The notes under the pieces: model-generated
The model's database searches: none
What the model was told of the DNA's origin: nothing
The model's input: only the letters and a program-made list of their open reading frames with translations
Part shown: positions 465-32,171 of the stretch, piece by piece
Layout: each line of letters begins with the position of its first letter
How positions within the stretch are numbered: position 1 is the first letter of the stretch
Assembly (NCBI GenBank): GCA_041660025.1
Contig: JBAZXD010000001.1
Span: 106,059-156,498 of the forward strand
Length of the DNA: 50,440 nt
Direction of reading: 5' to 3'
Source: Minisyncoccota bacterium
GTDB taxonomy: Bacteria; Patescibacteriota; Minisyncoccia; Phycocordibacterales; Phycocordibacteraceae
Program-made: the position numbers and the translations under genes

Positions 465-1126
465 GTATGAAGCGGTTCACTACCAAGCGAGTGAGTCAAA
501 AGAGAGATTCCGATTTCTCTTTTGCGAACGAGCGCAGGGAGCAAACCCAGCACTTTTCCTATAGTGCTGGGTTTACTCTTATTGAAACGATGGTCGCGGT
601 ATCAATCCTGACGCTCTCGGTCGCCGGCCCATTGTTCACGGCGAATCGTGCGATCGTTGCGGCGATGACCGCACGTGACCAGCTCACCGCCTCGTATCTC
701 GCGCAAGAGGGCATCGAATACGTGCGTGCGATGCGCGATAACGAATTCCTCGCTGCCTATCAGGCGGGTGGCTCAAGTGTTTCAAGTACTGCATGGACCA
801 ATTTCCTTACCGGTGGAGATGTCGCGTCCATAACGCAGTGTCGCGCGACGACCTGTACCCTCGACCCGGCGAGTCCTATGGGTACAGGGAGCGGCTTCTC
901 ACTCCAGCCGTGTACCGAGAGCGCGTGCACGCCTCTGTATTTGGCGAACAGCATTTATACGCAACAGAGCGAGATCGCGGGGGCGGTGAGGACGCCGTTC
1001 ACGCGCGTCATCCAGGCAATCAATGTTTCAGAGAGCGATGAACGCATCGTCTCGACCGTCTCCTGGAGCTATCACGGTATTCCGTATTCGGTAACGGTCT
1101 CCGATCACCTCACACCATGGCAATAA
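461..1126 (+). CDS. Type IV prepilin (PilV-like) with class III signal peptide
   Basis: G|FTLIETMVAVSILTLSV cleavage/methylation motif with E5; ATGA overlap with the upstream ORF. Confidence 0.9.
   Translation: MSMKRFTTKRVSQKRDSDFSFANERREQTQHFSYSAGFTLIETMVAVSILTLSVAGPLFTANRAIVAAMTARDQLTASYLAQEGIEYVRAMRDNEFLAAYQAGGSSVSSTAWTNFLTGGDVASITQCRATTCTLDPASPMGTGSGFSLQPCTESACTPLYLANSIYTQQSEIAGAVRTPFTRVIQAINVSESDERIVSTVSWSYHGIPYSVTVSDHLTPWQ
486..574. repeat. Two-hairpin palindromic insert in the prepilin leader
   Basis: Stems 497-508/513-524 (CAAAAGAGAGAT/ATTTCTCTTTTG, one G-T pair) and 543-554/563-574 (AAACCCAGCACT/AGTGCTGGGTTT). Confidence 0.75.
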
Positions 1127-1645: not shown

Positions 1646-3643
1646 ATGGCGGCTCCGAAGAAAGCGAACGAGCGAGCGGCGAAACTGCGCGATCTGCTCG
1701 CGCACCACGCGCATCGCTACTACACCCTGGATGCCCCGGAGATATCCGACAGCGCCTATGATGCGCTCTATCACGAGCTCCTCGAGCTCGAAGAGCGGTA
1801 CCCCGAACTCTCGCATACCCGTTCGGTCACGAAGCGCATTGTGGGCGACGCGCTCCCGGAACTCAAGAAGGTGCGGCACACGGTGCCGCAATGGTCGTTT
1901 ACTGATGCATTCACCGAAGAAGAGGCGCGCGCATTCGACGAGCGCGTGCGAAAAGTAAGCGGCACCGTACCCGCCTACGACCTTGAACTGAAGATCGACG
2001 GGTTGAAGATCGTCTTCACCTATGAAAAAGGCGTGCTCACCACGGCGGCGACCCGTGGCGACGGCGAGGTCGGCGAAGACGTCACCCACAACATTCGCAC
2101 CATACGGGAGATACCAGAGCGCCTCACGCGACCCGTCGACCTTATCGCCGAAGGCGAGGTGTATCTTACGCGCTCCGGATTTGCGGAGCTGAACGAGCTT
2201 CGCCGGAAGAGGAGTGAGCCGCTATTCGCGAATCCGCGCAACGCTGCCGCCGGTTCTATCCGCCAGCTGGACCCGAAGGTCGCGGCCGCTCGGCCGCTCG
2301 GCGCGTTTCTCTATGACGTCGCGCGCACCTCTGAGCCATCCCCAAAGACGCAGAGCGAGGAACTCGCATATCTCACCGGGCTCGGATTGCCGGTGAATCC
2401 CGAACACCAGCACGCGGATTCTCTCGAAGAAGTCTTCGCTTATTGGCGGAAGTGGCAGGGAAGCGCGAGAGAGAAGGTTGATTACCAGATCGACGGCATC
2501 GTGCTGAAGGTCGAAAGCCGCCTCGCACAGGAAACGCTCGGCTACACCGGCAAGGCGCCGCGCTTCGCTATCGCGTATAAGTTCCCGCCGGAGCAGGTGC
2601 AGACGATACTTGAAGACATCACGCTTCAGGTAGGGCGCACAGGGAAGCTCACGCCGGTCGCGCACCTGCGAAGCGTCGCGGTCGCGGGCTCTATCGTTTC
2701 TCGCGCGACCCTGCACAACGAGGATTTCATCAAGGAAAAAGACATTCGCATTGGCGATACGGTCATCCTCCAGAAGGCGGGCGACGTCATCCCCGAGATC
2801 GTCGCGGTCATACCAGAGTTGCGCTCGAAGGGTGCAAAAGCGTGGAAGTTTCCGACACACTCGCCTCTGTGCGGCGGCGACGGGAGCGTCGAGCGCGTTC
2901 CCGGCGAAGCGGCGCATTGCTGTTCGGTCGCCGGCTCCTTCGAGCAACAGGCGCGCAAGCTCATTCACTTCGCGGGGAAGCACGCGCTCGATATCGGCGG
3001 GATGGGGAAGGAGACAGTGCGGCTTCTGATGGAACAGAATCTCATTTCGGATTTTGACGATATTTTCGAACTGACGAAGGACGAACTGCTCGCACTCGAG
3101 GGATTCGAAGAAACGAAAGCGAACAAACTCATACGGGCGATTACGACGGCGAAGAAAGTTCCGTTCGACCGGCTCTTGATAGGCCTCGGTATTCCGCATG
3201 TCGGCGGCGAGACGGCGTATCTCCTCGCAACGCGTTTCGGGACGCTCGCCGCGCTTCGCGCGGCGAAAGAGGAGCTTCTTTCAAACATAGACGGTATCGG
3301 TCCTATCATCGGACACTCAGTGTCAGCGTGGTTTACCGACGCGGATAACCGCGCGCTTTTGGCTCGGCTCGGTAAGCACCTGAAGGTACAAAAGGTCGTT
3401 GCCCCGTCGAAAGGTCCCCTGACCGATCAGACGGTGGTCATTACCGGCACCTTGCCGACGCTCTCGCGCGAAGAGGCGGAAGCAATGGTGCGAAGAGCGG
3501 GAGGGAAGCCCGCGAGCACGGTCTCGGCGAAGACCTCATTCGTCGTCGCGGGCGAGAACCCGGGCAGTAAGTTCGACACGGCGAAAAAACTCGGGGTCCG
3601 CGTCCTCACCGAAGCCGAATTCCTCAAAAAACTGGGGGCGTGA
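1646..3643 (+). CDS. ligA: NAD-dependent DNA ligase
   Basis: ELKIDG adenylation motif, TRGDG, C-terminal BRCT (VVITGTL...SAKTSFVVAGENPGSK). Confidence 0.98.
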   Translation: MAAPKKANERAAKLRDLLAHHAHRYYTLDAPEISDSAYDALYHELLELEERYPELSHTRSVTKRIVGDALPELKKVRHTVPQWSFTDAFTEEEARAFDERVRKVSGTVPAYDLELKIDGLKIVFTYEKGVLTTAATRGDGEVGEDVTHNIRTIREIPERLTRPVDLIAEGEVYLTRSGFAELNELRRKRSEPLFANPRNAAAGSIRQLDPKVAAARPLGAFLYDVARTSEPSPKTQSEELAYLTGLGLPVNPEHQHADSLEEVFAYWRKWQGSAREKVDYQIDGIVLKVESRLAQETLGYTGKAPRFAIAYKFPPEQVQTILEDITLQVGRTGKLTPVAHLRSVAVAGSIVSRATLHNEDFIKEKDIRIGDTVILQKAGDVIPEIVAVIPELRSKGAKAWKFPTHSPLCGGDGSVERVPGEAAHCCSVAGSFEQQARKLIHFAGKHALDIGGMGKETVRLLMEQNLISDFDDIFELTKDELLALEGFEETKANKLIRAITTAKKVPFDRLLIGLGIPHVGGETAYLLATRFGTLAALRAAKEELLSNIDGIGPIIGHSVSAWFTDADNRALLARLGKHLKVQKVVAPSKGPLTDQTVVITGTLPTLSREEAEAMVRRAGGKPASTVSAKTSFVVAGENPGSKFDTAKKLGVRVLTEAEFLKKLGA

Positions 3644-6037: not shown

Positions 6038-6108
6038 AGCGGGGTAGAGGAGAGGTACCTCGGGAGGCTCATAACCTCCAGACGCCGGTTCGATTCCGGC
6101 CCCCGCAA
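6038..6108 (+). tRNA. tRNA-Met(CAT), probable initiator
   Basis: Cloverleaf: GCGGGG/CCCCGC acceptor with unpaired A1-A72, anticodon stem GGAGG/CCTCC with loop CTCATAA, T arm GCCGG-TTCGATT-CCGGC. Promoter TTGCCT-17-TATAGT at 6001-6029. Confidence 0.93.
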
Positions 6109-6115
6109 CAAGCAA

Positions 6116-7674: not shown

Positions 7675-9096
7675 TTGGAAATGGAAAAGTACGCATTCGA
7701 CGGCAAGATCCTTATCGTAGGATTCGGGAGTATCGGGCAGGGCGTGTTACCGCTCCTGCTCCGACATTTCAGCACGCCGCCCGAGAATATCACCATCGTT
7801 ACCGCCGACACGCGGGGCGAGGAGGTCGCCCGTGAATACGGCGTCCGCTTCGTCGTCGATCCTCTCGTCCCCGAGAATTACGAAGGAATCGTGGGACGGC
7901 ACATCGGAAGGGGTGATTTCCTCCTGAACGTCTCGGTGGACGTCTCCTCGGCCACGCTTATCGAATACTGCCAGAAGAACGGTATTCTCTACCTCGATAC
8001 CGTCGTCGAGCCGTGGGTCGGCTATTACACCGACCCGTCGCTCTCGGTCTCACAGCGTTCGAATTATGCGCTCCGCGAAGAGGCGCTCGCGCTCCGTTCG
8101 CTCTCCCTAGAGGGACCGCGCCCGACCGCGGTAATCGCACACGGCGCGAACCCGGGTCTTGTTTCTCACTTCGTCAAACAGGCGCTCCTCAATATCGCGG
8201 AAGACACCGGAGTAAAAACGGACATGCCGAAGACGCGCGAGGAATGGGCACGACTCGCGATGGAACTCGGCGTGAAGGTCATCCACATCGCCGAACGGGA
8301 TACGCAGGAGTCATCAGTACCGAAGAAAATAGGCGAGTTCGTCAATACCTGGTCCATTGACGGGTTTTATTCAGAAGGCAGTCAGCCGTCGGAGATGGGC
8401 TGGGGCACGCACGAAAAGACCATTCCCGCGGATGGTCGAGAACACGATTTCGGCTCGCGCTGTGCCATCTATCTGGAACGTCCGAGCTTTATGACGAAAG
8501 CGCGGAGCTGGACCCCTACCTCAAAAGCTCAGCAGGGGTGGGTCATCACGCACCACGAATCCATCTCTATCGCCGATTACCTGACGGTACTGGAGGGCGG
8601 CAAAGCCGTGTATCGGCCAACGGTACATTATGCGTATCACCCGTGCGACGGCGCCGTACTCTCGCTCGACGAGCTCGCGGCTAATAACGGCATCCTACAG
8701 GAAGAACAGCGACTCATCGGCGACGATATCCTCCCCGGCGGGGTCGACGAGCTCGGCGTTCTCCTTATGGGACACGCGAAGGGCGCGTACTGGTACGGCT
8801 CGCGCCTCTCCATCGACGACGCACGTCGGCTCGCGCCGCACAACAACGCGACCGGACTCCAGGTAACATCGAGCATCATCGGCGCGATGGTCTGGGCGAT
8901 CGAGAACCCGACTTCGGGCATCGTGGACGCCGACGAGATGGATCACGAGCTCCTGATGAAGATCGCGCGGCCGTATCTCGGCGAAGTGTTCGGCGAGTAC
9001 ACCGACTGGACGCCGATAGAAGGTCGCGGGAAGTTGTTCCCCGAGCACTTTGACGCTGAAGACCCGTGGCAGTTCGAAAATTTCAGAGTGTCCTGA
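7675..9096 (+). CDS. hss: Homospermidine synthase
   Basis: GFGSIG Rossmann motif, HGANPGLVSHFVKQAL, FVNTWSIDG, YWYGSRLSI, NATGLQV. Start may be 7681. Confidence 0.92.
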   Translation: MEMEKYAFDGKILIVGFGSIGQGVLPLLLRHFSTPPENITIVTADTRGEEVAREYGVRFVVDPLVPENYEGIVGRHIGRGDFLLNVSVDVSSATLIEYCQKNGILYLDTVVEPWVGYYTDPSLSVSQRSNYALREEALALRSLSLEGPRPTAVIAHGANPGLVSHFVKQALLNIAEDTGVKTDMPKTREEWARLAMELGVKVIHIAERDTQESSVPKKIGEFVNTWSIDGFYSEGSQPSEMGWGTHEKTIPADGREHDFGSRCAIYLERPSFMTKARSWTPTSKAQQGWVITHHESISIADYLTVLEGGKAVYRPTVHYAYHPCDGAVLSLDELAANNGILQEEQRLIGDDILPGGVDELGVLLMGHAKGAYWYGSRLSIDDARRLAPHNNATGLQVTSSIIGAMVWAIENPTSGIVDADEMDHELLMKIARPYLGEVFGEYTDWTPIEGRGKLFPEHFDAEDPWQFENFRVS

Positions 9097-12947: not shown

Positions 12948-14732
12948 ATGCTTCCTGAGAAGAAAAAACCGGCGCGCGTGAGAGCGGTGCTTCGCGCGTA
13001 CGGCAGGGCCGCGCTCGCGTACCCCTGGGCGCTGGGCGCGGCAGTTATTGCCGCGATAACGATCGAGGCGGCGGGAGTCGTCGCGCCGCTGTTCCTGCGC
13101 CAGTTCATTAACCTGCTTTCGGGCGGCACGCCGACCGCGGAGGTTGTCAGGGCGATTTTTCTGGCGCTCCTGTTCTTCTCGGCGGTCAATCTGGTCGGGT
13201 GGCTCGGCCAGAGGCTGCGCCTCTACGCGGTTAACCGTCTCGAATCGAGGACGATGGTCGACCTCTACCAAAGCTCCTTCGAGTATCTGCTCGGACACGC
13301 GCACGAATTCTTCATTTCGAATTTTACCGGTACGCTGACCCGCCGTGTGACGCGGTATGCACGCTCGTTCGAACAGGTGTTCGATAATTTCCTGTTCAAT
13401 TTCTTTCCCGCATTCATATTCGCCATCGGTATCATCGGCGTGCTCTCTCTGCGCAGCCCGCTCCTCGGGGCGGGGCTCCTGGTGTGGACGATAGTGTTCG
13501 TCTATCTGCAATTCAAGATGATGCTCCGGCGCCAGCCCTTGCGCATCGCACGCACCGAGGAGGACAGTCGCGTGACCGGTTTCCTTTCTGACGCGGTGCT
13601 CAATCATTCGACTATCACCACCTTTGCCGCCCTAGAGTTCGAGCGTACGCGCTTCGCGGAGACGATCAAGCGGTGGTACCGGGCGCTGATGCGCGTGTGG
13701 AATGCCGACGTCTGGGTCTACGGCATCCAAGGGCTCCTCGCTATTGGCATCGAATTCGCCCTTCTTGCCGGCGCGATAGTGCTCTGGCAGAAGGGTCTCG
13801 TGACGGTCGGCGACTTCGTGCTCATCCAGATCTATATTCTCGGTCTTTTCAATCGTATCTGGAGTATCGGACAGAATATGCGCCAGCTCTACGACGCCTT
13901 CGCCGACGCGACCGAGATGCTCGACATTATGGAACTGCCGCACGGGATCCAGGACGCGCCGGGCGCTCCGTCGCTTCAGGCGCGCGAGGGAGCGATCGTC
14001 TTCGACCGCGTGCGCTTCGAATACCACGACGGCCACGAAGTGCTCAGGGATTTCAGCCTTACGATACAACCGCGCGAGAAAGTGGCGCTTATCGGCTCCT
14101 CTGGCGCGGGCAAGACGACCATCGCGAAGCTCCTCCTGCGCCTCTATGACGTGAGTAGCGGCACTATCAGCATCGACGGCCAGGATATATCGCGCGTGAC
14201 GCAGGAGAGCCTGCGCTCTTCGATCGCGTTCGTCCCGCAGGAGCCGATGCTCTTCCATCGTTCGCTCCTCGATAACATCCGCTACGGTCGGCAGGATGCC
14301 ACCGACGACGAGGTCATCGAGGCGGCGCGGGAAGCGCACTGCCACGAGTTCATCAGTCAGTACCCCGAAGGGTTCCATACGATGGTCGGCGAGCGCGGCG
14401 TGAAGCTCTCGGGCGGCGAACGCCAGCGGGTCGCCATCGCGCGCGCCATCCTGAAGGACGCGCCCATCCTCGTCTTGGATGAGGCGACCTCGAGCCTCGA
14501 TTCCGAATCCGAACGGCTCATCCAGGACGCGCTCCTGCGGCTGATGAAAGGGAAGACGGTCATCGCTATCGCGCACCGGCTCTCGACCGTGATGCATATG
14601 GACCGCCTCATCGTGATGGAGAAGGGCGCTGTCGTCCTCTCCGGTACGCACGACGAACTGCTCGCGCACGAGAGTAATCTCTACAAGAAGCTCTGGGAGA
14701 TCCAGGCGGGCGGCTTCATCCGGAAGGATTGA
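12948..14732 (+). CDS. ABC exporter, fused permease/ATP-binding (MdlB/MsbA-like)
   Basis: TM domain plus [30 protein letters not shown]. Confidence 0.95.
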   Translation: MLPEKKKPARVRAVLRAYGRAALAYPWALGAAVIAAITIEAAGVVAPLFLRQFINLLSGGTPTAEVVRAIFLALLFFSAVNLVGWLGQRLRLYAVNRLESRTMVDLYQSSFEYLLGHAHEFFISNFTGTLTRRVTRYARSFEQVFDNFLFNFFPAFIFAIGIIGVLSLRSPLLGAGLLVWTIVFVYLQFKMMLRRQPLRIARTEEDSRVTGFLSDAVLNHSTITTFAALEFERTRFAETIKRWYRALMRVWNADVWVYGIQGLLAIGIEFALLAGAIVLWQKGLVTVGDFVLIQIYILGLFNRIWSIGQNMRQLYDAFADATEMLDIMELPHGIQDAPGAPSLQAREGAIVFDRVRFEYHDGHEVLRDFSLTIQPREKVALIGSSGAGKTTIAKLLLRLYDVSSGTISIDGQDISRVTQESLRSSIAFVPQEPMLFHRSLLDNIRYGRQDATDDEVIEAAREAHCHEFISQYPEGFHTMVGERGVKLSGGERQRVAIARAILKDAPILVLDEATSSLDSESERLIQDALLRLMKGKTVIAIAHRLSTVMHMDRLIVMEKGAVVLSGTHDELLAHESNLYKKLWEIQAGGFIRKD

Positions 14733-14744
14733 TTGTCTGAATGA

Positions 14745-14873
14745 GGTGCGTTTGATAGTGTGTCGAGAGTGCCGGGCGGATTGCCGCTGTAAGCGTTGCT
14801 TGCACGCTTCCACCCGGCTCGTTCGGAGAGTGTGGGAATGAGTGCAGACACTCGTTCCCACACTTCCTCACTC
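14745..14873 (+). ncRNA. Structured tRNA-leader element A
   Basis: Hairpins AAGCGT-TGCTTGC-ACGCTT and GTGTGGGAATGAGTG/CACTCGTTCCCACAC; homologous to 19661-19783; abuts tRNA +1. Confidence 0.65.
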
Positions 14874-14948
14874 GCCGGTGTAGTTCAAGAGTTAGAACGA
14901 GGGACTCATAAACCCTAGACGGTGGCGCGACTCCACCCACCGGCACCA
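14874..14948 (+). tRNA. tRNA with CAT anticodon (elongator Met, or Ile2), CCA encoded
   Basis: GCCGGTG/CACCGGC acceptor, GTTC/GAAC D stem, loop CTCATAA, GGTGG/CCACC T stem with atypical loop CGCGACT, ends ACCA. Confidence 0.88.
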
Positions 14949-14970
14949 TAAGAGTCGTACACGACATTTT

Positions 14971-15092
14971 CGGGAGAGTTTGATAGGATGGCGGAACGAG
15001 GTCTTCGGGTGTCCACGGTCGTAATCCTAAGAAGGATTGCGCCCGCTGCGCTCGGAAAAAGTGAAAGCAGAATCTCACTTTGTTCCTCGCTT
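14971..15092 (+). ncRNA. Structured tRNA-leader element B (divergent)
   Basis: Shares GTTTGATAG and terminal TTCCTCRCT with element A; hairpins GTAATCCT/AGGATTGC and AAAGTGA/TCACTTT. Confidence 0.5.
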
Positions 15093-15166
15093 GCGGTCGT
15101 AGCTCAACTGGTTAGAGCATCCGCCTGTCACGCGGAAGGTTGCCGGTTCAAGTCCGGTCGACCGCG
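15093..15166 (+). tRNA. tRNA-Asp(GTC)
   Basis: GCGGTCG/CGACCGC acceptor, CCGC-CTGTCAC-GCGG anticodon arm, GGTTCAAGTCC T arm. Confidence 0.96.
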
Positions 15167-15172
15167 CATCAA

Positions 15173-15207
15173 TAAAAACCGACGGTCCCCGGGACCGTCG
15201 GTTTTTA
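15173..15207. terminator. Intrinsic terminator
   Basis: TAAAAACCGACGGTCCC-C-GGGACCGTCGGTTTTTA. Confidence 0.88.
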
Positions 15208-15217
15208 TATCCCCAGG

Positions 15218-15248
15218 TTGACGAGAATACCCCCTAGGGGTATTCTCG
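15218..15248 (+). promoter_or_regulatory. Sigma70-type promoter with CsoR operator
   Basis: TTGACG-17-TATTCT overlapped by palindrome CGAGAATACCCC-CTA-GGGGTATTCTCG, a C-tract/G-tract pattern typical of CsoR operators. Confidence 0.85.
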
Positions 15249-15253
15249 GGGGT

Positions 15254-15517
15254 ATGACCGTACCCAAAGCAAAATTGGTCCGCCGGCTCAAGATCATCGA
15301 GGGCCAGGTGCGCGGACTGCAGGAACTGATCGAGAAAGACACGTACTGCATCGACGTTATTACCCAGACCTCCGCGGTGAAGCAGGCGCTCTCCGGCATT
15401 GAGGATGTGCTGATGGAGAACCATCTCGGCACCTGCGTCGTCCACCAGATGAAAAAGGGGAAGGAGCGCACCGCCATCGGCGAGATACTGAAGGTATATA
15501 ACCTCAAGCGCAGATAA
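15254..15517 (+). CDS. csoR: Copper-sensing repressor, CsoR family
   Basis: RLKIIEGQVRGL, YCIDV, ENHLGTC (Cys-His-Cys ligands). Confidence 0.92.
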   Translation: MTVPKAKLVRRLKIIEGQVRGLQELIEKDTYCIDVITQTSAVKQALSGIEDVLMENHLGTCVVHQMKKGKERTAIGEILKVYNLKRR

Positions 15518-15521
15518 TCGT

Positions 15522-17816
15522 ATGCAGACTCGCACGTACCGGGTACGAGGAATGCACTGCGCGTCCTGTGCGAGTATTATCGAGAAATCGTTGAAAAAGG
15601 TGGCGGGCGTGCATGCAATCGAAGTGAATCCCGGCACCGAGGCGGCAAAAATTTCATACGATGAAACGACAACGAGTCCGGAACAACTGTCGAAGATTAT
15701 CGAACCGCTTGGGTATTCGCTCGTGGTTGCAAAGGAGCGGTCTGCAACAGAAATGGGGATGTCGGCCGATGCGCATGCGGCGCATCTCGGGCTGAATCAG
15801 ACGAAAGAAGAGAAATTGGCCGAGCTCGCGGATATGAAATGGAAAGTTATTTCCGCTCTGCCGCTCGCCGTGTTCAGCGCCATCATTTTAGGATGGGATA
15901 TGTCCGTGCAATTCGAGCTGGTACCGGACATGCCGTACGTGTGGAGCGAATTTTTCCATCATCTTTTGCCGCTTTTCGCGACCTATATGCTGTTCGTGGT
16001 CGGGAAGCCGTACCTGCTCGGCCTGTACCGGTTCTTGCGTCACGGGACCGCGAATATGGATACGCTCATCGGACTCGGCACCTTGGCCGCGTATCTGTAC
16101 AGCTTCGCCGTGACCGCCTTTGAAGGAACGCTGCGTCCGTTCATCGATGTCGACCAGACATACTACGACGTGACGATCATCGTTATCGCGTTCATCGCGC
16201 TCGGCAAATATCTTGAAACGCGCTCCAAATTGAAAACCGGCGATGCTATCGAGAAGCTTTTGAATCTGCAGGCAAAGACCGCGCTCGTCCTGCGAGATGG
16301 AAAAGAAGTCGAGATCCCCATTACCGATGTCGTGCACGGCGACCTGATCATCGTGAAGCCGGCCGGGAAGATCCCGGTCGACGGCGTCGTTACCGAAGGA
16401 GAGTCATACGTCGACGAATCGATGATCTCCGGCGAGCCGATGCCGGTAGAGAAGAAGGAAGGGGAGACGGTCGTCGCCGGAACGCTCAATACGAGCGGTT
16501 CGTTCACGTTTCGGGCGACGAAGGTCGGTTCCGAAACGCTCTTGGCGAACATCATTACTATGGTCGAAGAGGCTCAGGGGAGTAAGGCGCCCATTCAGGC
16601 GCTCGCGGATAGGATATCAAGCGTCTTCGTGCCGACCGTATTAGTCATCGCTTTCCTTTCACTCGGTCTTTGGCTCCTCATCGGGTCGGGGTCGCTCGGA
16701 TTCGCACAGGCGCTCTCTTACGGGCTCGTCTCGTTCGTCGGCGTGCTCGTCATCGCGTGTCCCTGTGCCCTCGGGCTCGCCACGCCGACCGCCATCATCG
16801 TCGGTGTCGGCAAGGGAGCTGGCGAAGGAATACTGGTCAAAGACGCTGCGACGCTCGAGAAACTTCATCAGGTGGACGTCGTGGTGGTGGATAAGACGGG
16901 GACCTTGACCCGCGGCAAGCCGGAGATGGTCGCACTGAAAAATTTTTCAGATAAAAGCGATGCCGATATTATTGCGATCCTCGCATCACTTGAAAATAAA
17001 TCGGAGCATCCGATCGCGCACGCTGTTGTCGCATATGCGAAGGAGAAACATATTCCACTCGTACCCGTCGAGCAGTTCGCGATGCTACAAGGGAAGGGTA
17101 TTACCGGCATCGTCGGCGGGGTCCAGTACCACATCGGGAGCGCCCGGCTCGCGGGAGAACTCGGCGGGAACCTCGCGTCGCTCGAAACAGAGACGAGAGA
17201 GGGGAAGACGCCGGTCATCCTCGCCGCGAGCGGGAACGTGCTTGCCGTCGCGATGGTTGCCGACGCGATAAAGCCGGAAGCGGTCGAGGCGGTCAGGGAT
17301 CTCCACAGGCTAGGCATCAAAGTGGTTATGCTGACCGGAGACGACAAGAACACGGCGCTCGCGATAGCGAAACAAATCGGCATAGACGATGTGGTCGCTG
17401 AGGTTCTGCCGGCAGACAAATTGAATAAAATTAAAGAGTTGCAAGCGGAAGGGAAGGTGGTCGCGATGGCCGGCGACGGCGTGAATGACGCACCGGCGCT
17501 CGCGCAGGCGGACGTGGGAATCGCGATGGCGACCGGTACCGATGTAGCGATAGAGAGCGCGGGCATCACGCTCCTCCACGGCGATATCTCCAAGCTGGTC
17601 AAAGCCATCTCGCTTTCCAAGATGACGATGCGCGGCATCAAGCAAAACCTGTTTTGGGCATTCGTCTATAACATCGTCGGCATTCCGCTCGCGAGCGGGA
17701 TATTCTATCCGTTTTTCGGTTGGCTGCTCTCTCCGGTGTTCGCGGGGCTCGCGATGGCGGCCTCGAGCGTGTCGGTCGTAGGCAACTCGCTTCGGCTTAA
17801 AACCAAGAAATTGTAA
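15522..17816 (+). CDS. copA: Cu(I)-exporting P1B-type ATPase
   Basis: GMHCASC HMA domain, CPCALG, DKTGT, SEHP, GDGVND, YN and MAASS motifs. Confidence 0.96.
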   Translation: MQTRTYRVRGMHCASCASIIEKSLKKVAGVHAIEVNPGTEAAKISYDETTTSPEQLSKIIEPLGYSLVVAKERSATEMGMSADAHAAHLGLNQTKEEKLAELADMKWKVISALPLAVFSAIILGWDMSVQFELVPDMPYVWSEFFHHLLPLFATYMLFVVGKPYLLGLYRFLRHGTANMDTLIGLGTLAAYLYSFAVTAFEGTLRPFIDVDQTYYDVTIIVIAFIALGKYLETRSKLKTGDAIEKLLNLQAKTALVLRDGKEVEIPITDVVHGDLIIVKPAGKIPVDGVVTEGESYVDESMISGEPMPVEKKEGETVVAGTLNTSGSFTFRATKVGSETLLANIITMVEEAQGSKAPIQALADRISSVFVPTVLVIAFLSLGLWLLIGSGSLGFAQALSYGLVSFVGVLVIACPCALGLATPTAIIVGVGKGAGEGILVKDAATLEKLHQVDVVVVDKTGTLTRGKPEMVALKNFSDKSDADIIAILASLENKSEHPIAHAVVAYAKEKHIPLVPVEQFAMLQGKGITGIVGGVQYHIGSARLAGELGGNLASLETETREGKTPVILAASGNVLAVAMVADAIKPEAVEAVRDLHRLGIKVVMLTGDDKNTALAIAKQIGIDDVVAEVLPADKLNKIKELQAEGKVVAMAGDGVNDAPALAQADVGIAMATGTDVAIESAGITLLHGDISKLVKAISLSKMTMRGIKQNLFWAFVYNIVGIPLASGIFYPFFGWLLSPVFAGLAMAASSVSVVGNSLRLKTKKL

Positions 17817-17819
17817 ATT

Positions 17820-18854
17820 ATGGAAAACAAACCGCACCAGACACACACGTTTCATATACAGGGTATGCACTGTCAGGCGTGCATCCTACTGACCGAGAGC
17901 GAGTTACGGGAGGTCGACTACGTTTCGCGCGCGACCTCGAGTCTTACCACACGTACCGTCGAAGTGTGCGGCGACTTCGGCGATCGAAGCCCTGCAGAAA
18001 TCGCACACGAGCTCTCACAGGTGCTGAAGAAGCACGGATACTCGCTTTCGATAGAGCGACAACAGCACGCCGCGAATTGGGCGGACTTCGCTGTTGCGGT
18101 ACCGATCGCACTCGGATTTGCGGTGCTCTTTGTGCTTCTTCAGAAGCTTGGCATCGTGAATGTGATAAACACCAGCTCGGTTTCGTATGGCACGGCATTC
18201 CTCATCGGCATCGTCGCCTCGCTCTCGACCTGTATGGCGGTGGTAGGCGGTCTCGTGCTCTCGATGTCCGCCACCTTCGCCCGGGAAGGGGATCGGGTGC
18301 GTCCGCAGGTCCTCTTCCACGCGGGACGCATCGCGGCGTTCTTCGTCCTTGGCGGAGCCATCGGCGCGCTTGGTGCGTCGTTTACTCTCGGCACGACCGG
18401 GATGTTCGCCCTGAGTCTACTGGTCGGCGTCGTGATGCTCGTGCTTGGTCTTAATTTGCTCGACGTGTTCCCGTGGGTAAAGCGGCTTCAGCCGGCAATG
18501 CCGAAATTCCTCGCGACTCGCGCGCTTGGCGCCTCAAGAATGAGTCACACGCTCACACCGCTCATTGTGGGCGTCGCGACGTTCTTCCTGCCGTGCGGAT
18601 TCACGCAGGCGATGCAGTTTTACAGTCTCACGACCGGCGGCTTCCTCGTCGGAGGCCTCACGATGCTCGCCTTCGCGCTCGGGACCCTGCCGGTCTTGGC
18701 GCTTATCGGCTTCAGCTCGTTCAGTATTAAGAACAACGCCAAGGCGGGCATTTTCTTCAAGTCTGCGGGGCTCATCGTGATACTGTTCGCGCTCTTTAAT
18801 ATCATAAACAGTCTGGTGGTCATCGGCCTCATTTCCCCTGTGTTCAATTTCTAG
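17820..18854 (+). CDS. HMA-domain sulfite exporter TauE/SafE (DsbD_2-like) membrane protein
   Basis: GMHCQAC, SLSTCMAVVGG, FLPCGFTQ; a usual copA neighbour. Confidence 0.88.
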   Translation: MENKPHQTHTFHIQGMHCQACILLTESELREVDYVSRATSSLTTRTVEVCGDFGDRSPAEIAHELSQVLKKHGYSLSIERQQHAANWADFAVAVPIALGFAVLFVLLQKLGIVNVINTSSVSYGTAFLIGIVASLSTCMAVVGGLVLSMSATFAREGDRVRPQVLFHAGRIAAFFVLGGAIGALGASFTLGTTGMFALSLLVGVVMLVLGLNLLDVFPWVKRLQPAMPKFLATRALGASRMSHTLTPLIVGVATFFLPCGFTQAMQFYSLTTGGFLVGGLTMLAFALGTLPVLALIGFSSFSIKNNAKAGIFFKSAGLIVILFALFNIINSLVVIGLISPVFNF

Positions 18855-18871
18855 GTATCATTCCCTTACCT

Positions 18872-19261
18872 ATGAAGCCCTTGCACCTCGCCCTCGTTGT
18901 CGCCGCCACCCTCATCGGTGGCTCACTTATGATTTCGCTCAACAGACCGAGCGTGCAAGAGGAGGTTCCGGCAAATAACGTTACCATCGTCGACGGTCAG
19001 CAGGTCATCGAGATAGAGGCGAAGGGCGGTTATACGCCGCGCACGAGTACGGCGAAGGCCGGCATTCCGACGATTTTGCGTTTTCGCACTGACGGTACGT
19101 TCGATTGCTCGTCCTACATCCGCATCCCGAGTATGAACGTCAGCAAAAACCTTCCCTCAACGGGCACCGTCGACATCCCCATAACCGATCCAAAGGCCGG
19201 GTCGCTCATCGGTATGTGTGGTATGGGTATGTACCCGTTCCAGGTGAACTTCGAGAGCTAG
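18872..19261 (+). CDS. Cupredoxin-domain protein
   Basis: N-terminal anchor, GGYTP, FDCSS, CGMGM. Confidence 0.85.
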   Translation: MKPLHLALVVAATLIGGSLMISLNRPSVQEEVPANNVTIVDGQQVIEIEAKGGYTPRTSTAKAGIPTILRFRTDGTFDCSSYIRIPSMNVSKNLPSTGTVDIPITDPKAGSLIGMCGMGMYPFQVNFES

Positions 19262-19301
19262 CGTCAGGCATGGTATAAGTACACCAAGCTTTTTATATCC
19301 T

Positions 19302-19631
19302 ATGCTTGGCTTCCATCATCTACGCTCTCGAGCGCTCGTCGCGCAGGGTCTCGAACCGTTCCCGGCACGAAGCACGTGGAAACGTTTCCTCGACCGCCTT
19401 ATGTACAGCGTCGGAATTCTCGCACCGCTTGCACTTATGCCGCAGGTTATTTCTATCTACGTAGATCATGAGAAACAAGGCGTCTCTCTCGAAACGTGGG
19501 TTCTGCTCGCAGTATTCAACATCCTCTGGGTGGTCTACGGCATCGTACATAAGGACAAACCGATCATTATCACGCACGCGCTGTTTACGGTTCTCGACGT
19601 CTCGATTGTCGCCGGCGTACTCCTGTTGTAA
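19302..19631 (+). CDS. SemiSWEET / PQ-loop family small transporter
   Basis: LMPQV PQ motif, WVVYGIVHKDKPII, three TM segments. Confidence 0.75.
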   Translation: MLGFHHLRSRALVAQGLEPFPARSTWKRFLDRLMYSVGILAPLALMPQVISIYVDHEKQGVSLETWVLLAVFNILWVVYGIVHKDKPIIITHALFTVLDVSIVAGVLLL

Positions 19632-19660
19632 TTAGAAATTGAAAGAATGCGGGAATTCAG

Positions 19661-19783
19661 TTAGGATGCACGAGTGCGAGAAATCCGAGTCGCCGCGATA
19701 AGCGTTGCTTGCACGCTTTTCTTTCGGCTCGTTCGGGCGGTGAGGGAATGTATGAGGACACACATTCCCTCACACCTTCACTC
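19661..19783 (+). ncRNA. Structured tRNA-leader element C
   Basis: Identical TAAGCGTTGCTTGCACGCTT and CGGCTCGTTCGG to element A; second hairpin with compensatory changes; abuts tRNA +1. Confidence 0.65.
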
Positions 19784-19856
19784 GCCGAGATAGCTCAGTT
19801 GGTAGAGCACGTCCATGGTAAGGACGAGGTCGTCGGTTCAATCCCGACTCTCGGCT
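19784..19856 (+). tRNA. tRNA-Thr(GGT)
   Basis: GCCGAGA/TCTCGGC acceptor, CGTCC-ATGGTAA-GGACG anticodon arm, GGTTCAATCCC T arm. Confidence 0.96.
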
Positions 19857-20074
19857 CAAAGATCAAAAATAGCGAAGTTCTCTCGAGAAACCAGCGTTTC
19901 TCGGGGTATTTTGAGCTTGCTATCAACAAGAGGGATATTGACAACACAAGAACTATCGAGAAGGTGGTATACTAAACACAGCGTTCTGTTCGTGTGCTGA
20001 CTTAGATGCGCACGGCAATCTGACTCTAGTAAGGTAGGTAGAAGGAAGGTCTTACACATAATAAATAATTAGGT

Positions 20075-24437: not shown

Positions 24438-24510
24438 GCCGCCTTAGCTCAGTTGGTAGAGCAACCCCTTCGTAAGGGGTAGGTCCTCAGTTCAAATCTG
24501 AGAGGCGGCT
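24438..24510 (+). tRNA. tRNA-Thr(CGT)
   Basis: GCCGCCT/AGGCGGC acceptor, ACCCC-TTCGTAA-GGGGT anticodon arm, CTCAG-TTCAAAT-CTGAG T arm. Confidence 0.95.
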
Positions 24511-24560
24511 CAAAAAAGGAACGCCCAGCATTTGCCGGGCGTCTGCGCTCAAAGGTTTCG

Positions 24561-31783: not shown

Positions 31784-31949
31784 GCTGCCAGACTTGGACT
31801 ACGAGTACGTTTTTCGAAACGTACCGTTTCAGTACACCTTGTGGATTTTCTGTTCGCTTCGCTCCATAAAATGCTCACAAGGTCTTCGAATCCAAGCCGC
31901 AGGCGTCCCACACCTGCTTCTGGCAGCAAAAACGCTGCGCTTATTTTTG
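31784..31949 (-). repeat. Inverted and direct copies of the tRNA-Gln 3' end around a multi-hairpin element
   Basis: 31919-31932 pairs with 31944-31957; 31885-31896 pairs with 31958-31969; 31784-31798 is a direct copy of 31949-31963. Confidence 0.85.
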
Positions 31950-32020
31950 CTGCCAGACTTGGATTCGAACCAAGATACTCAGATTCAGAGTCTGAGGTCC
32001 TACCATTAGACGATCTGGCA
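31950..32020 (-). tRNA. tRNA-Gln(CTG)
   Basis: TGCCAGA/TCTGGCA acceptor, TCAGA-CTCTGAA-TCTGA anticodon arm, CTTGG-TTCGAAT-CCAAG T arm. Confidence 0.96.
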
Positions 32021-32171
32021 ATAAGAACACTTTATTCTTGCCAATCGTCTTTTGGGAGGACGTGTCCTACTAGCAAGTGAGCCGAGCCAAATACGAAAGT
32101 CTTCTTTTGTATTTGTGAGGCGAACGCAGCTAGAAAGCCCGGAGGGCTTACCATTAGACGATCTGGCAATA
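32021..32171 (-). repeat. Inverted and direct copies of the tRNA-Gln 5' end around a multi-hairpin element
   Basis: 32149-32171 is an exact 23-bp copy of 32001-32023; 32038-32050 is an inverted copy of 32008-32021 with a 1-nt gap. Confidence 0.85.

Follow-up and report, generated by a model that had tools for sequence, protein, structure and literature searches.

The 50,440-nucleotide stretch of contig JBAZXD010000001.1 (positions 106,059 to 156,498 of the forward strand; assembly GCA_041660025.1) of a Minisyncoccota bacterium, referred to as the window in the following, carries tRNA genes that are preceded by a structured leader in which both strands of the acceptor stem of the adjoining tRNA are imitated. 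Two of these leaders, A in front of tRNA-Met (CAT) and C in front of tRNA-Thr (GGT), had been singled out in an original prediction made by a model from the letters of the window. It described sequences shared between them, a long hairpin with compensatory changes, acceptor-like segments, a fixed spacing to the tRNA, and a common terminus TCACTC at tRNA +1. All the sequences that it quoted are present in the window where it had placed them. The tRNAs of the window were placed with ARAGORN and the Rfam tRNA model.

The 20-mer TAAGCGTTGCTTGCACGCTT occurs at exactly two sites of the window, 14790 and 19699, at a chance expectation of 0.01, and two matches were reached in 0 of 100 shuffles. Exact matches of CGGCTCGTTCGG are found in the window only at 14815 and 19725. 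With one or two mismatches, this sequence is seen 18 times versus 12 times expected in the window, which is not above chance, so that only its exact pair counts. In leader A, GCCGCTGTA at 14783 corresponds to GCCGGTGTA of the tRNA, and CACCCGGC at 14811 to CACCGGC; in leader C, GCCGCGATA at 19692 corresponds to GCCGAGATA, and TTTCGGC at 19722 to TCTCGGC. The 5' copies of tRNA bases 1-9 begin 91-92 nt upstream of tRNA +1, TCACTC at tRNA +1 is the terminus of both leaders, and both compensatory swaps claimed for the long hairpin are present. A covariance model of the family (see below) scores leader A (14783-14873) with 92.6 bits and leader C (19692-19783) with 84.3 bits.

The 3' mimic of leader A, CCACCCGGC, is complementary to bases 1-7 of tRNA-Met with one bulge, and the 3' mimic of leader C, TTCTTTCGGC, pairs with GCCGAGA of its tRNA at 7 of 7 positions, G-U included. 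Leader A has in addition an upstream segment, GCCGGGCGG (14771-14779), which is complementary to its 3' mimic at 8 of 9 positions and pairs with 14810-14818 in minimum-energy folds of this leader. Its long hairpin ends in the tetraloop CAGA closed by G-C. The original prediction had each leader fold as acceptor 5' strand, TA, one hairpin, and acceptor 3' strand. The two strands of this fold were retained in the present analysis, and the clean mini-acceptor helix was not, as the helix between the two mimics is systematically defective and the upstream segment of the Met leaders competes for the same strand.

Anatomy and conservation of the module

Leaders A and C are copies (units) of a module of about 90 bases, which consists, from 5' to 3', of a 5' mimic, the hairpin P2, an anti-acceptor strand (the 3' mimic), a box, and the hairpin P3, followed by the tRNA. 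The 5' mimic has 7 bases and is followed by a U, by P2 with the sequence AAGCGU-UGCUUGC-ACGCUU, and by 1-2 pyrimidines. The 3' mimic comprises 7 bases and usually one inserted base, followed by UC. The box UCGYUCGG (G-Y-UC-GGA...) pairs with CCUCRCUC (...UCC-UC-R-C-UC) at the base of P3, where G-C and Y-R pairs between the boxes result in two UC/UC internal loops. The apex of P3 is mostly an NRGA tetraloop closed by G-C, and only 2 unpaired bases lie between the end of P3 and tRNA +1, which is the RNase P site.

The same structure was obtained by RNAalifold and by direct counting of pairs in an alignment of 43 units. In P3, 94.9% of the cells are paired and 118 double changes are found, a result that was equalled in 0 of 500 shuffles, with slid controls reaching at most 62%. 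The Y41-R91 pair of the boxes covaries, being CG in 18 and UA in 16 cases. The invariance of P2 across the 43 aligned units is by construction, as these units were chosen with that 19-mer; units found only with the covariance model carry compensatory variants of P2 (AAGAGT/ACTCTT, AGGCGT/ACGCCT) or a wholly different hairpin.

In locus L004, a unit at 496-582 forms a Met/Thr pair with a unit at 3154-3240; 86% of P3 is shared between the two, and the acceptor-like strands are quite different. Judged from this pair, it looks as if the body of the module had been copied or homogenised between tRNA genes and its two strands had been matched anew.

Distribution of the family

Relatives were collected by an exact search for the 19-base P2 hairpin in a one-genome-per-species collection, in metagenomes, and in viral contigs, and the related loci retrieved from genomes and metagenomes were given L-numbers (L001 etc.). 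The one-genome-per-species collection yielded 19 loci, 16 of which are in Patescibacteria assemblies (Paceibacterota, Kaiserbacteria, Saccharibacteria, Minisyncoccia), and the metagenomes yielded 53 further loci; no copy of the 19-mer was found in the viral contigs. Ten matches from outside the Candidate Phyla Radiation (CPR), namely L001, L003, L006, L021, L026, L039, L045, L046, L048, and L053, were rejected as family members and treated as chance because they are without any flanking features. The covariance model R1, built from 43 aligned distinct units that had all been picked with the 19-mer, gave 89 matches in 59 loci, many with a variant hairpin beyond the reach of the 19-mer search. 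After removal of duplicates, 85 distinct units remained, the window counted in. As far as sampled, the family is confined to CPR/Patescibacteria.

The link to tRNA genes is tight: 61 of the 85 units precede a tRNA 5' end, either directly or as part of a tandem. The 3' end of 49 units is 0-1 nt from the 5' end of a tRNA called by ARAGORN, 7 are directly followed by another unit, and 5 precede intron-interrupted or partial tRNAs that ARAGORN missed. The remaining 24 were classed as 'other', and about half of these still belong to arrays adjoining tRNAs. The tRNAs served are those for Met, Thr (GGT, CGT, TGT), Arg (CCT, TCT), Asp, Phe, Ile, Gln, and Asn.

Rfam 15 contains no matching family: at the gathering score only tRNA models were reached in the window, a search of 14700-15200 with E values up to 10 gave nothing meaningful over the leaders, and the related loci matched only tRNA and group I intron models. 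Full-text literature searches, which included the hairpin sequence itself, returned no description either. The view that the element is undescribed is thus upheld.

Group I introns (RF00028) interrupt tRNA-Asn and tRNA-Thr (GGT) in three related loci (L008, 5148-5415; L024, 11231-11461; L071, 1450-1685), and introns after the anticodon were seen by eye downstream of the units in L011, L012, and L018. ARAGORN misses these tRNAs because of the interruption. In L010, three tRNA genes (Arg, Leu, Val) abut without any spacer at 7693-7922. Two units without a downstream tRNA (L049, 156-243; L072, 7339-7426) follow a gene ending in ...KLGKIDPAAKKTRKGGKR and are themselves followed by remnants of the GTTGCTGT type. 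In L049, the next open reading frame (ORF) resembles the YbeY endoribonuclease by eye; the contig of L072 stops before that ORF.

Correspondence between leader and tRNA

In the 47 units that abut a tRNA, the identity of the 5' mimic to tRNA bases 1-9 is.94,.96,.94,.89,.53,.81,.87,.94, and.98, respectively. The observed 5.4 identities out of 7 compare with 4.4 out of 7 for permuted partners and were reached in 0 of 5000 permutations. Many tRNAs start with GCCG, and the informative cases are therefore the others. Matching leaders are found for the acceptors GCTGGCG, GCTGACA, and GCTGGTG of tRNA-Met, for GCGGTCG, GCGGGGG, GCGGGAG, and GCGGCTG of tRNA-Asp, for GCTTGGA of tRNA-Phe, for GCAAGCG of tRNA-Ile (leader GCAATCG), and for TCCGCGG of tRNA-Asn. 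Where orthologous leaders of tRNA-Asp or tRNA-Thr (GGT) are compared, a different acceptor stem is accompanied by corresponding changes in the two mimic strands.

Base 5 is where the 5' mimic mostly departs from the tRNA; identity at this base falls to.39 for units of the canonical class, with a pyrimidine as the usual substitute. This is unlike the pattern of a uniform decay. If positions in the 3' mimic are numbered from its fixed 3' end, base 5 of the tRNA is paired with it in 77% of the units and base 5 of the 5' mimic in 21%, and its positions 1-4 pair with both. Counted over 37 distinct combinations of leader and tRNA, 76.8% of the cells of the mimic helix are paired, with pair 5 formed in 8 and unpaired in 29 combinations. 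In the alternative helix between the 3' mimic and the tRNA 5' strand, 90.3% of the cells are paired and pair 5 is formed in 25 of the 37. The two helices are mutually exclusive, and both show covariation at pair 3. According to duplex energies, 32 of 38 informative units have a 3' mimic that binds the real tRNA 5' strand more strongly than it binds the leader's copy, a result reached in 0 of 2000 permutations. Because of this better pairing, the 3' mimic is better described as an anti-acceptor strand. Judged by these sequences, the anti-acceptor strand is kept complementary to the tRNA 5' strand, and the leader's own copy of that strand is kept slightly worse.

The original prediction had derived from leaders A and C that the variable positions track the adjacent tRNA, that the imitation is mismatched at pair 5, and that the leader can swap strands with the acceptor stem. 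The tracking persists in the larger set, as both permutation results indicate, and also among leaders of a single tRNA type, since tRNA-Asp acceptors with TCG, GGG, GAG, and CTG each have a matching leader. The mismatch turned out to be a rule of the whole family, and the ability to swap strands gains sequence support from the preference for the real strand.

Folding and promoters

When 17 Thr and 15 Met leaders were extended into the tRNA, RNAalifold chose the anti-acceptor:tRNA helix, which is continuous with P3 and forms a 'rod'. For leader C followed by tRNA bases 1-9 only, the rod is the minimum-energy fold (-49.7 versus -45.8 kcal/mol). For the complete precursor, the cloverleaf together with the leader's own fold wins (-78.5 versus -71.7 kcal/mol). 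This order of energies is what an ordered hand-off of the anti-acceptor strand would need.

A third acceptor-like segment, as in leader A, is also present in the Met leaders of L005, L015, L020, L041, L047, L054, and L065. Upstream segments of the GTCGGATGA type in other Met leaders stand opposite TCATCCGGC, with compensatory changes seen by eye. The segment is complementary to the 3' mimic, extra base included; RNAalifold did not pick that helix. A helix between upstream segment and 3' mimic is probable in Met leaders from this complementarity, and it would leave the Met 5' mimic unpaired in an internal loop. An outer helix between the leader 5' end and CACUC, which is predicted in leader C, is not general across Thr leaders.

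Promoter-like boxes are conserved upstream of several leader types. The TTTGGTAGTGT box is kept in all aligned tRNA-Met leaders as well as in the relative without a unit, the leaders of tRNA-Thr (GGT) keep TTGAAA and a TAGTCT/TAGTAT box, and the Asp leaders have a conserved -10-like TTTGGTAGGAT box upstream. As the units sit between such boxes and the tRNA, we infer that they are transcribed as leaders.

Presence, absence, and repeats at the DNA level

The syntenic Kaiserbacteria locus L014 has the same end of an ABC-transporter gene, promoter box, and tRNA-Met, and no unit. It reads ...ctATT joined directly to GCCGGTGTAG, and the window reads ...ggATT followed by GCCGCTGTA, the unit, and GCCGGTGTAG. 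Conversely, L042 has a homologous promoter followed by GCCGTGGTA, a unit, and GCCGGGGTAG at the site of tRNA-Thr (CGT), which in the window is without a unit. Both differences amount to exactly one unit plus one copy of a 9-base repeat. Presence and absence together with the repeats fit an insertion that duplicates its target, or an easy gain and loss by slippage between built-in repeats.

The units of L008, L009, L024, and L016 are directed towards the 3' end of a tRNA (Asn, Gly) that is encoded on the other strand. The '5' mimic' of these units is the antisense of the tRNA 3' end plus flanking bases, and the direct repeats are longer, with GGCTCCGCGGGTA present in three copies (13/13) in L024 and GAGTGCGGGATA (12/12) in L016. 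P3 of the opposite-strand units resembles a two-way intrinsic terminator. Tandem arrays of 2-3 units also occur, in which the unit nearest to the tRNA often has a perfect repeat; one truncated unit looks like the product of a deletion between two CTCGCTC boxes. Two tRNA-like copies, one in leader D of the window (see below) and one in L017, are interrupted by a unit after GGTA in the D-loop. Units without a tRNA are followed by decayed remnants resembling GTTGCTGTA and have a well-paired acceptor-like helix (P1) of their own sequence, e.g., GAGGAAG/CTTCCTC in L072. The similarity of P3 is 0.63 at the same locus and 0.60 between units of the same tRNA type in other loci, with a baseline of 0.59, and the P3 sequences do not cluster clearly by genome or by tRNA type.

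Possible functions

The maturation of tRNA 5' ends is usually viewed as no more than the removal of an unstructured leader by RNase P, and to our knowledge no natural leader is known to recognise its own tRNA. In the favoured reading, the module is a leader acting in cis, which exchanges pairing partners with the acceptor stem while the RNA folds and its 5' end is processed. This reading is advanced tentatively, as the best candidate rather than the probable answer, and builds on the anatomy, the conservation, the covariation, the matching to the tRNA, and the asymmetry at pair 5 described above; from these, we infer the order of the pairings and any effect on RNase P. The module would be co-transcribed with its tRNA from a promoter 15-40 nt upstream. 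The anti-acceptor strand would first pair weakly with the defective copy in the leader, or with the copy further upstream in Met leaders, and then more strongly with the newly made 5' strand of the tRNA. The latter pairing would create one rod continuous with P3, in which the tRNA 5' strand and the cleavage site are held or hidden, until the anti-acceptor strand is lastly displaced by the tRNA's own, perfectly matching 3' strand. In this way, the leader would guide or gate formation of the acceptor stem and 5' maturation, with the invariant P2 and the pyrimidine-rich internal loops as a likely docking site for a protein or RNA partner.

In its widest form, the proposal is that natural pre-tRNA leaders throughout the superphylum read their own acceptor stem and use a weakened copy of it to run an ordered strand exchange. 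This is a possibility we regard with some doubt; if true, formation of the tRNA acceptor stem and RNase P cleavage would for the first time be seen to be chaperoned or gated by a natural element in cis. The module may furthermore spread between tRNA genes, with its two acceptor-like strands tailored anew to each host tRNA. A role of this kind would add a layer to tRNA biogenesis, be it guidance of folding, timed or regulated processing, or release of a tRNA-like RNA. RNase P RNAs of CPR bacteria are unusually reduced (PMC8172020). The leader may compensate for this reduction or interact with the reduced RNA, which makes the link to 5' processing worth testing.

Several observations weigh against the strand-swapping leader. 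In leader A, the rod is never favoured (-74.8 versus -87.1 kcal/mol), because the upstream segment 14771-14779 holds the anti-acceptor strand, and the hand-off scheme as stated can therefore not fit all members. If the RNA were the functional form, the plus strand would be expected to fold best; in 53 of 65 units it is the reverse complement that has the more stable fold, as its counterparts of the UC/UC loops are tandem G-A. Counts of G-U versus A-C favour the plus strand only weakly (24 versus 15), and structure alone thus does not fix the functional strand. Units are also dispensable, being absent from tRNA-Met of L014 and from tRNA-Thr (CGT) and the second tRNA-Met of the window. Those that face tRNA 3' ends or lie away from tRNAs can have no role as a 5' leader there. 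Finally, the central mismatch could be selected at the DNA level, as it would suppress slippage deletion between the two 9-base repeats.

The main rival to the strand-swapping leader is a DNA element, duplicative or mobile, with tRNA gene ends as its landing sites; we consider this unlikely, though not strongly so. A module of about 82 bases would insert between GTA and G, either at tRNA bases 7-10 or at GGTA and G in the D-loop, or, on the other strand, at this motif as it is read from the 3' end into the tRNA. Thereby, 9-13 target bases would be duplicated, the tRNA would stay intact, and the old copy would become the 5' mimic. The hairpins would serve recognition by the mobility machinery and the complementary strand the choice of the target, and the position as a leader would be a by-product, which is compatible with a later domesticated RNA role. 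Such insertions would account for units that are cleanly present or absent at homologous sites and whose boundaries coincide with the repeat (L014, L042), although precise loss by slippage between the repeats explains this pattern equally well. Direct repeats that extend beyond the acceptor, as in L024 and L016, the tandem arrays, the interrupted D-loops, and the tRNA-free units with their remnants also speak for mobility, as do the Met and Thr units of L004, in which P3 is largely shared and the acceptor-like strands differ. On the other hand, the length of the repeat is variable, there are no terminal inverted repeats, no associated gene for a transposase, integrase, or reverse transcriptase is in view, and no mechanism was found that could tailor the internal complementary strand to a new target. 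Copies at the same locus are hardly more alike in P3 than copies at the same tRNA type elsewhere, and the focus on base 5 together with the kept complementary match points to continuing selection instead of decay after insertion. The duplication mechanism aimed at tRNA ends, which had been one option of the original prediction, thus gained from presence and absence, from repeats of up to 13 bases, and from the opposite-strand units, and is retained as a rival rather than as the favoured explanation.

Release of the unit as a small RNA, which would act as a mini-tRNA or a look-alike of the top half of a tRNA, and thus as a decoy or as a partner for pairing in trans, appears improbable to us. 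Its structure would be P1 (7 bp) on P2 (6 bp, 7-nt loop), followed by P3; it would use the tRNA promoter, RNase P cleavage at tRNA +1 would set its exact 3' end, and its target would be a factor that reads acceptor stems or the acceptor strands of the tRNA in trans. Together, P1 and P2 have 13 bp and a 7-nt loop, which is near the 12-bp stack of acceptor and T-arm, but the P2 loop UGCUUGC is off the T-loop consensus, no NCCA follows the 3' mimic, and the mimic helix of tRNA-linked units is systematically broken at pair 5, which would be odd for a mimic. The units at tRNA-Asn resemble independent genes with a -10-like box of their own and a P3 that doubles as an intrinsic terminator, tRNA-free units keep a paired P1 of their own sequence (L072), and the invariance of P2 suggests a specific binding partner. 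A decoy of the synthetase type, however, would have no need to track acceptor bases 5-7, whose identity in one and the same tRNA differs from lineage to lineage. The least probable explanation, for which very little chance is left, is neutral debris in the form of decaying partial tRNA duplicates without function. Many tRNA fragments do occur in the surroundings (the pseudo-copy of tRNA-Gln in the window, L017, a downstream fragment in L059), and units are gained and lost between relatives. The data disfavour decay, since different CPR classes have the same 19-base hairpin beside a P3 that varies through compensatory substitutions, the boxes are conserved with Y-R covariation, the mismatch is specific to one position, and the units are tied tightly to tRNA +1 with a fixed 2-nt spacing.

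If the DNA-level explanation were true, the module would be a new kind of repeat that seeks tRNA ends and is complementary to its own target duplication. Under either reading, annotation gains a new RNA family that Rfam 15 does not contain, that is useful as a marker of CPR genomes, and that accounts for 'partial tRNA' signals upstream of CPR tRNA genes.

Comparison with known systems

The element belongs to none of the nearest known families. Control of RNase P cleavage has been reported for a designed element by which the 5' leader of a pre-tRNA is either concealed or made accessible (PMC7897497). Like this designed RNase P riboswitch, the CPR element is located in cis in a pre-tRNA leader, and alternative pairings would decide on access to the cleavage site. 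The designed riboswitch, however, is synthetic, driven by a ligand, and sequesters bases of the leader rather than the acceptor strand, whereas the CPR element is natural, without a known ligand, and matched to the acceptor of each tRNA, with its effect on RNase P a proposed one. It would thus be a testable natural counterpart to such designs. In E. coli, the rrn leader pairs transiently with the 5' part of 16S rRNA and assists its folding. Here as well, a transcribed upstream segment pairs with the mature 5' end and is later displaced and removed, as proposed for CPR tRNAs; in contrast to the CPR element, the rrn leader concerns rRNA, has no copy of the mature helix, and is not an invariant hairpin module found at many genes.

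Similarities to tRNA-like structures and minihelices, such as the tmRNA domain, modules of bacterial Y RNAs, and viral tRNA-like structures, consist in an acceptor-like helix on a 5-6 bp hairpin with a 7-nt loop. Accordingly, a stack of about 12 bp with a 7-nt loop is present in the unit (7 positions in P1, 6 bp in P2) despite the defect at pair 5. A T-loop of the type UUCRANY and a 3' NCCA are absent from the unit, in which the loop is UGCUUGC and the 3' mimic is followed by UCGYUCGG. In further contrast to minihelices, the unit has no CCA end, is defective at pair 5, is located in cis before the tRNA that it copies, and changes its sequence with that tRNA. T-box leaders, too, are structured and use base pairing to recognise a specific tRNA, but they belong to mRNAs of aminoacylation-related genes, read the anticodon and NCCA in trans, and are represented in Rfam, none of which applies to the CPR unit. 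An assignment as a T-box leader was rejected, as there is no match to RF00230 and the unit precedes tRNA genes and not mRNAs.

The attL and attR sites of integrative elements resemble the units in that short direct repeats of a tRNA gene end flank an insert and leave the tRNA intact. In the CPR units, the repeat is usually the 5' end, the insert of about 82 bases is without genes or an integrase, and it carries a second segment complementary to the repeat. Duplication of tRNA ends by an integrase was rejected on the grounds of the mostly 5' repeat and the insert without ORFs. When compared with miniature inverted-repeat transposable elements and insertion sequences, the ends of the unit (AAGCG... 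and ...CCTCRCTC) are not inverted repeats; flanking repeats of 9-13 bases and variable length are present, and the copies lie almost only at tRNA ends and are not near-identical.

Other identities were rejected as well. The unit is not a tRNA or a tRNA pseudogene, as ARAGORN and the Rfam model call only the downstream tRNAs and the unit consists of acceptor-like strands and a single hairpin. An intron is excluded by the completeness of the downstream tRNA, and in particular a group I intron, since the RF00028 matches of the relatives are inside tRNA bodies, not in units, and none is found in the window. Core motifs of a hammerhead or another self-cleaving ribozyme are absent, as are Rfam matches to them. 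RNase P recruitment in the manner of an external guide sequence lacks the NCCA after the complementary strand, and the analogy to a primer-binding site fails because the bases upstream of the 5' copy are not complementary to N73-CCA. A boxA/boxB antitermination leader is resembled faintly by one member only, and a DNA operator palindrome is disfavoured by the conservation of the loop and by the Y-R covariation, which argues for pairing. An intrinsic terminator is not found in leader A, and P3 of leader C is not flagged as one. Only P2 with the U-rich 3' mimic of leader C (19700-19728) was flagged as terminator-like in the consensus scan, with a 6-bp stem followed by UUUUCUUUC; its U run, which results from the acceptor ending AGA, is absent in other leaders. 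In the tRNA-Asn arrays of relatives, P3 carries U runs.

Further units and other features of the window

Two further tRNAs of the window are preceded by divergent units, leader B and leader D (Table 1). In leader B, the 5' mimic ACGGTCGTA corresponds to GCGGTCGTA of tRNA-Asp and the 3' mimic GCGCCCGC to CGACCGC. The hairpin is AATCCT/AGGATT, followed by the box TGCGCTCGG, the P3 hairpin, and CCTCGCTT; orthologous Asp units are found in L005, L014, L028, L047, and L059. Leader D begins with an exact copy of the first 21 bases of tRNA-Gln (TTGCCAGATCGTCTAATGGTA, 32169-32149), and this tRNA-like copy is broken by the unit after GGTA. The unit is composed of the hairpin AAGCCC/GGGCTT, the box GCGTTCGCC, P3 with a GAAGAC apex, and then TAGTAGGAC...GACGATTGGCAA.

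Table 1. Positions of leaders, their parts, the tRNAs they precede, promoter-like sites, and opposite-strand units of related loci
Feature	Position	Strand	Basis or remark
Weak fifth unit, no adjoining tRNA	489..551	-	18 bits, E ~0.0035; membership uncertain
Leader A, candidate extended -10 box GTTTGATAGTGT	14750..14765	+	conservation only; below the threshold of the consensus scan
Leader A, upstream acceptor-like segment GCCGGGCGG	14771..14779	+	third copy of the 5'-strand motif
Leader A, 5' mimic GCCGCTG+T	14783..14790	+	tRNA bases 1-8 are GCCGGTGT; base 5 G->C
Leader A, hairpin P2, AAGCGT-TGCTTGC-ACGCTT	14791..14809	+	identical in A and C
Leader A, 3' mimic / anti-acceptor strand CCACCCGGC	14810..14818	+	CACCGGC plus one inserted C
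Leader A, box TCGTTCGG, long P3 hairpin, closing CCTCACTC	14819..14873	+	
tRNA-Met (CAT), cargo of leader A	14874..14948	+	ARAGORN, Rfam tRNA model
Leader B, divergent unit before tRNA-Asp	15015..15092	+	model match, 23.5 bits, E ~1e-4
tRNA-Asp (GTC), cargo of leader B	15093..15167	+	ARAGORN, Rfam tRNA model
Promoter-like site TTGAAA-17-TAGGAT upstream of leader C	19639..19667	+	consensus scan
Leader C, 5' mimic GCCGCGA+T	19692..19699	+	tRNA GCCGAGAT; base 5 A->C
Leader C, hairpin P2	19700..19718	+	same as in leader A
Leader C, 3' mimic / anti-acceptor strand TTCTTTCGGC	19719..19728	+	
Leader C, box TCGTTCGG, P3 hairpin (loop AGGA), closing CTTCACTC	19729..19783	+	
tRNA-Thr (GGT), cargo of leader C	19784..19857	+	ARAGORN, Rfam tRNA model
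tRNA-Gln (CTG), cargo of leader D	31949..32020	-	ARAGORN, Rfam tRNA model
Leader D before tRNA-Gln	32021..32169	-	model match 32157-32075, 22.4 bits, E ~2e-4
Opposite-strand units/arrays of related loci	L024 10990-11190; L008 4877-5104; L009 5839-5928; L016 7472-7553		

The weak fifth match on the minus strand at 489-551 contains a box GCGCTCGTTCG, a P3 hairpin, and ACTCACTC, followed by GCTTGGTAGTGAAC, and lies on the strand opposite to two flanking pilin-like genes. Its sequence suggests that it belongs to a second class of units, with a D-arm-like remnant after it. Its ending ...CTCRCTYGGTAGTAAC recurs in L010, L027, L059, and the Gln leader of the window.

No unit was found at the two remaining tRNAs of the window (6038-6109 and 24438-24511). 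The unit-less tRNAs of the window include tRNA-Thr (CGT) and the second tRNA-Met, and relatives have a unit at the Thr (CGT) site. A -10-like box (TATAGT; TATGGTAGAAAT) is located about 8-15 bases upstream of these two tRNAs, so that their leaders would be very short.

The region between leaders B and C (15218-19261) resembles a copper-resistance cluster, as read from its ORFs and sequence alone. Its parts would be a small CsoR-like ORF, a P-type ATPase whose N-terminus binds heavy metals, a membrane protein that contains a second metal-binding domain, and a small secreted protein.

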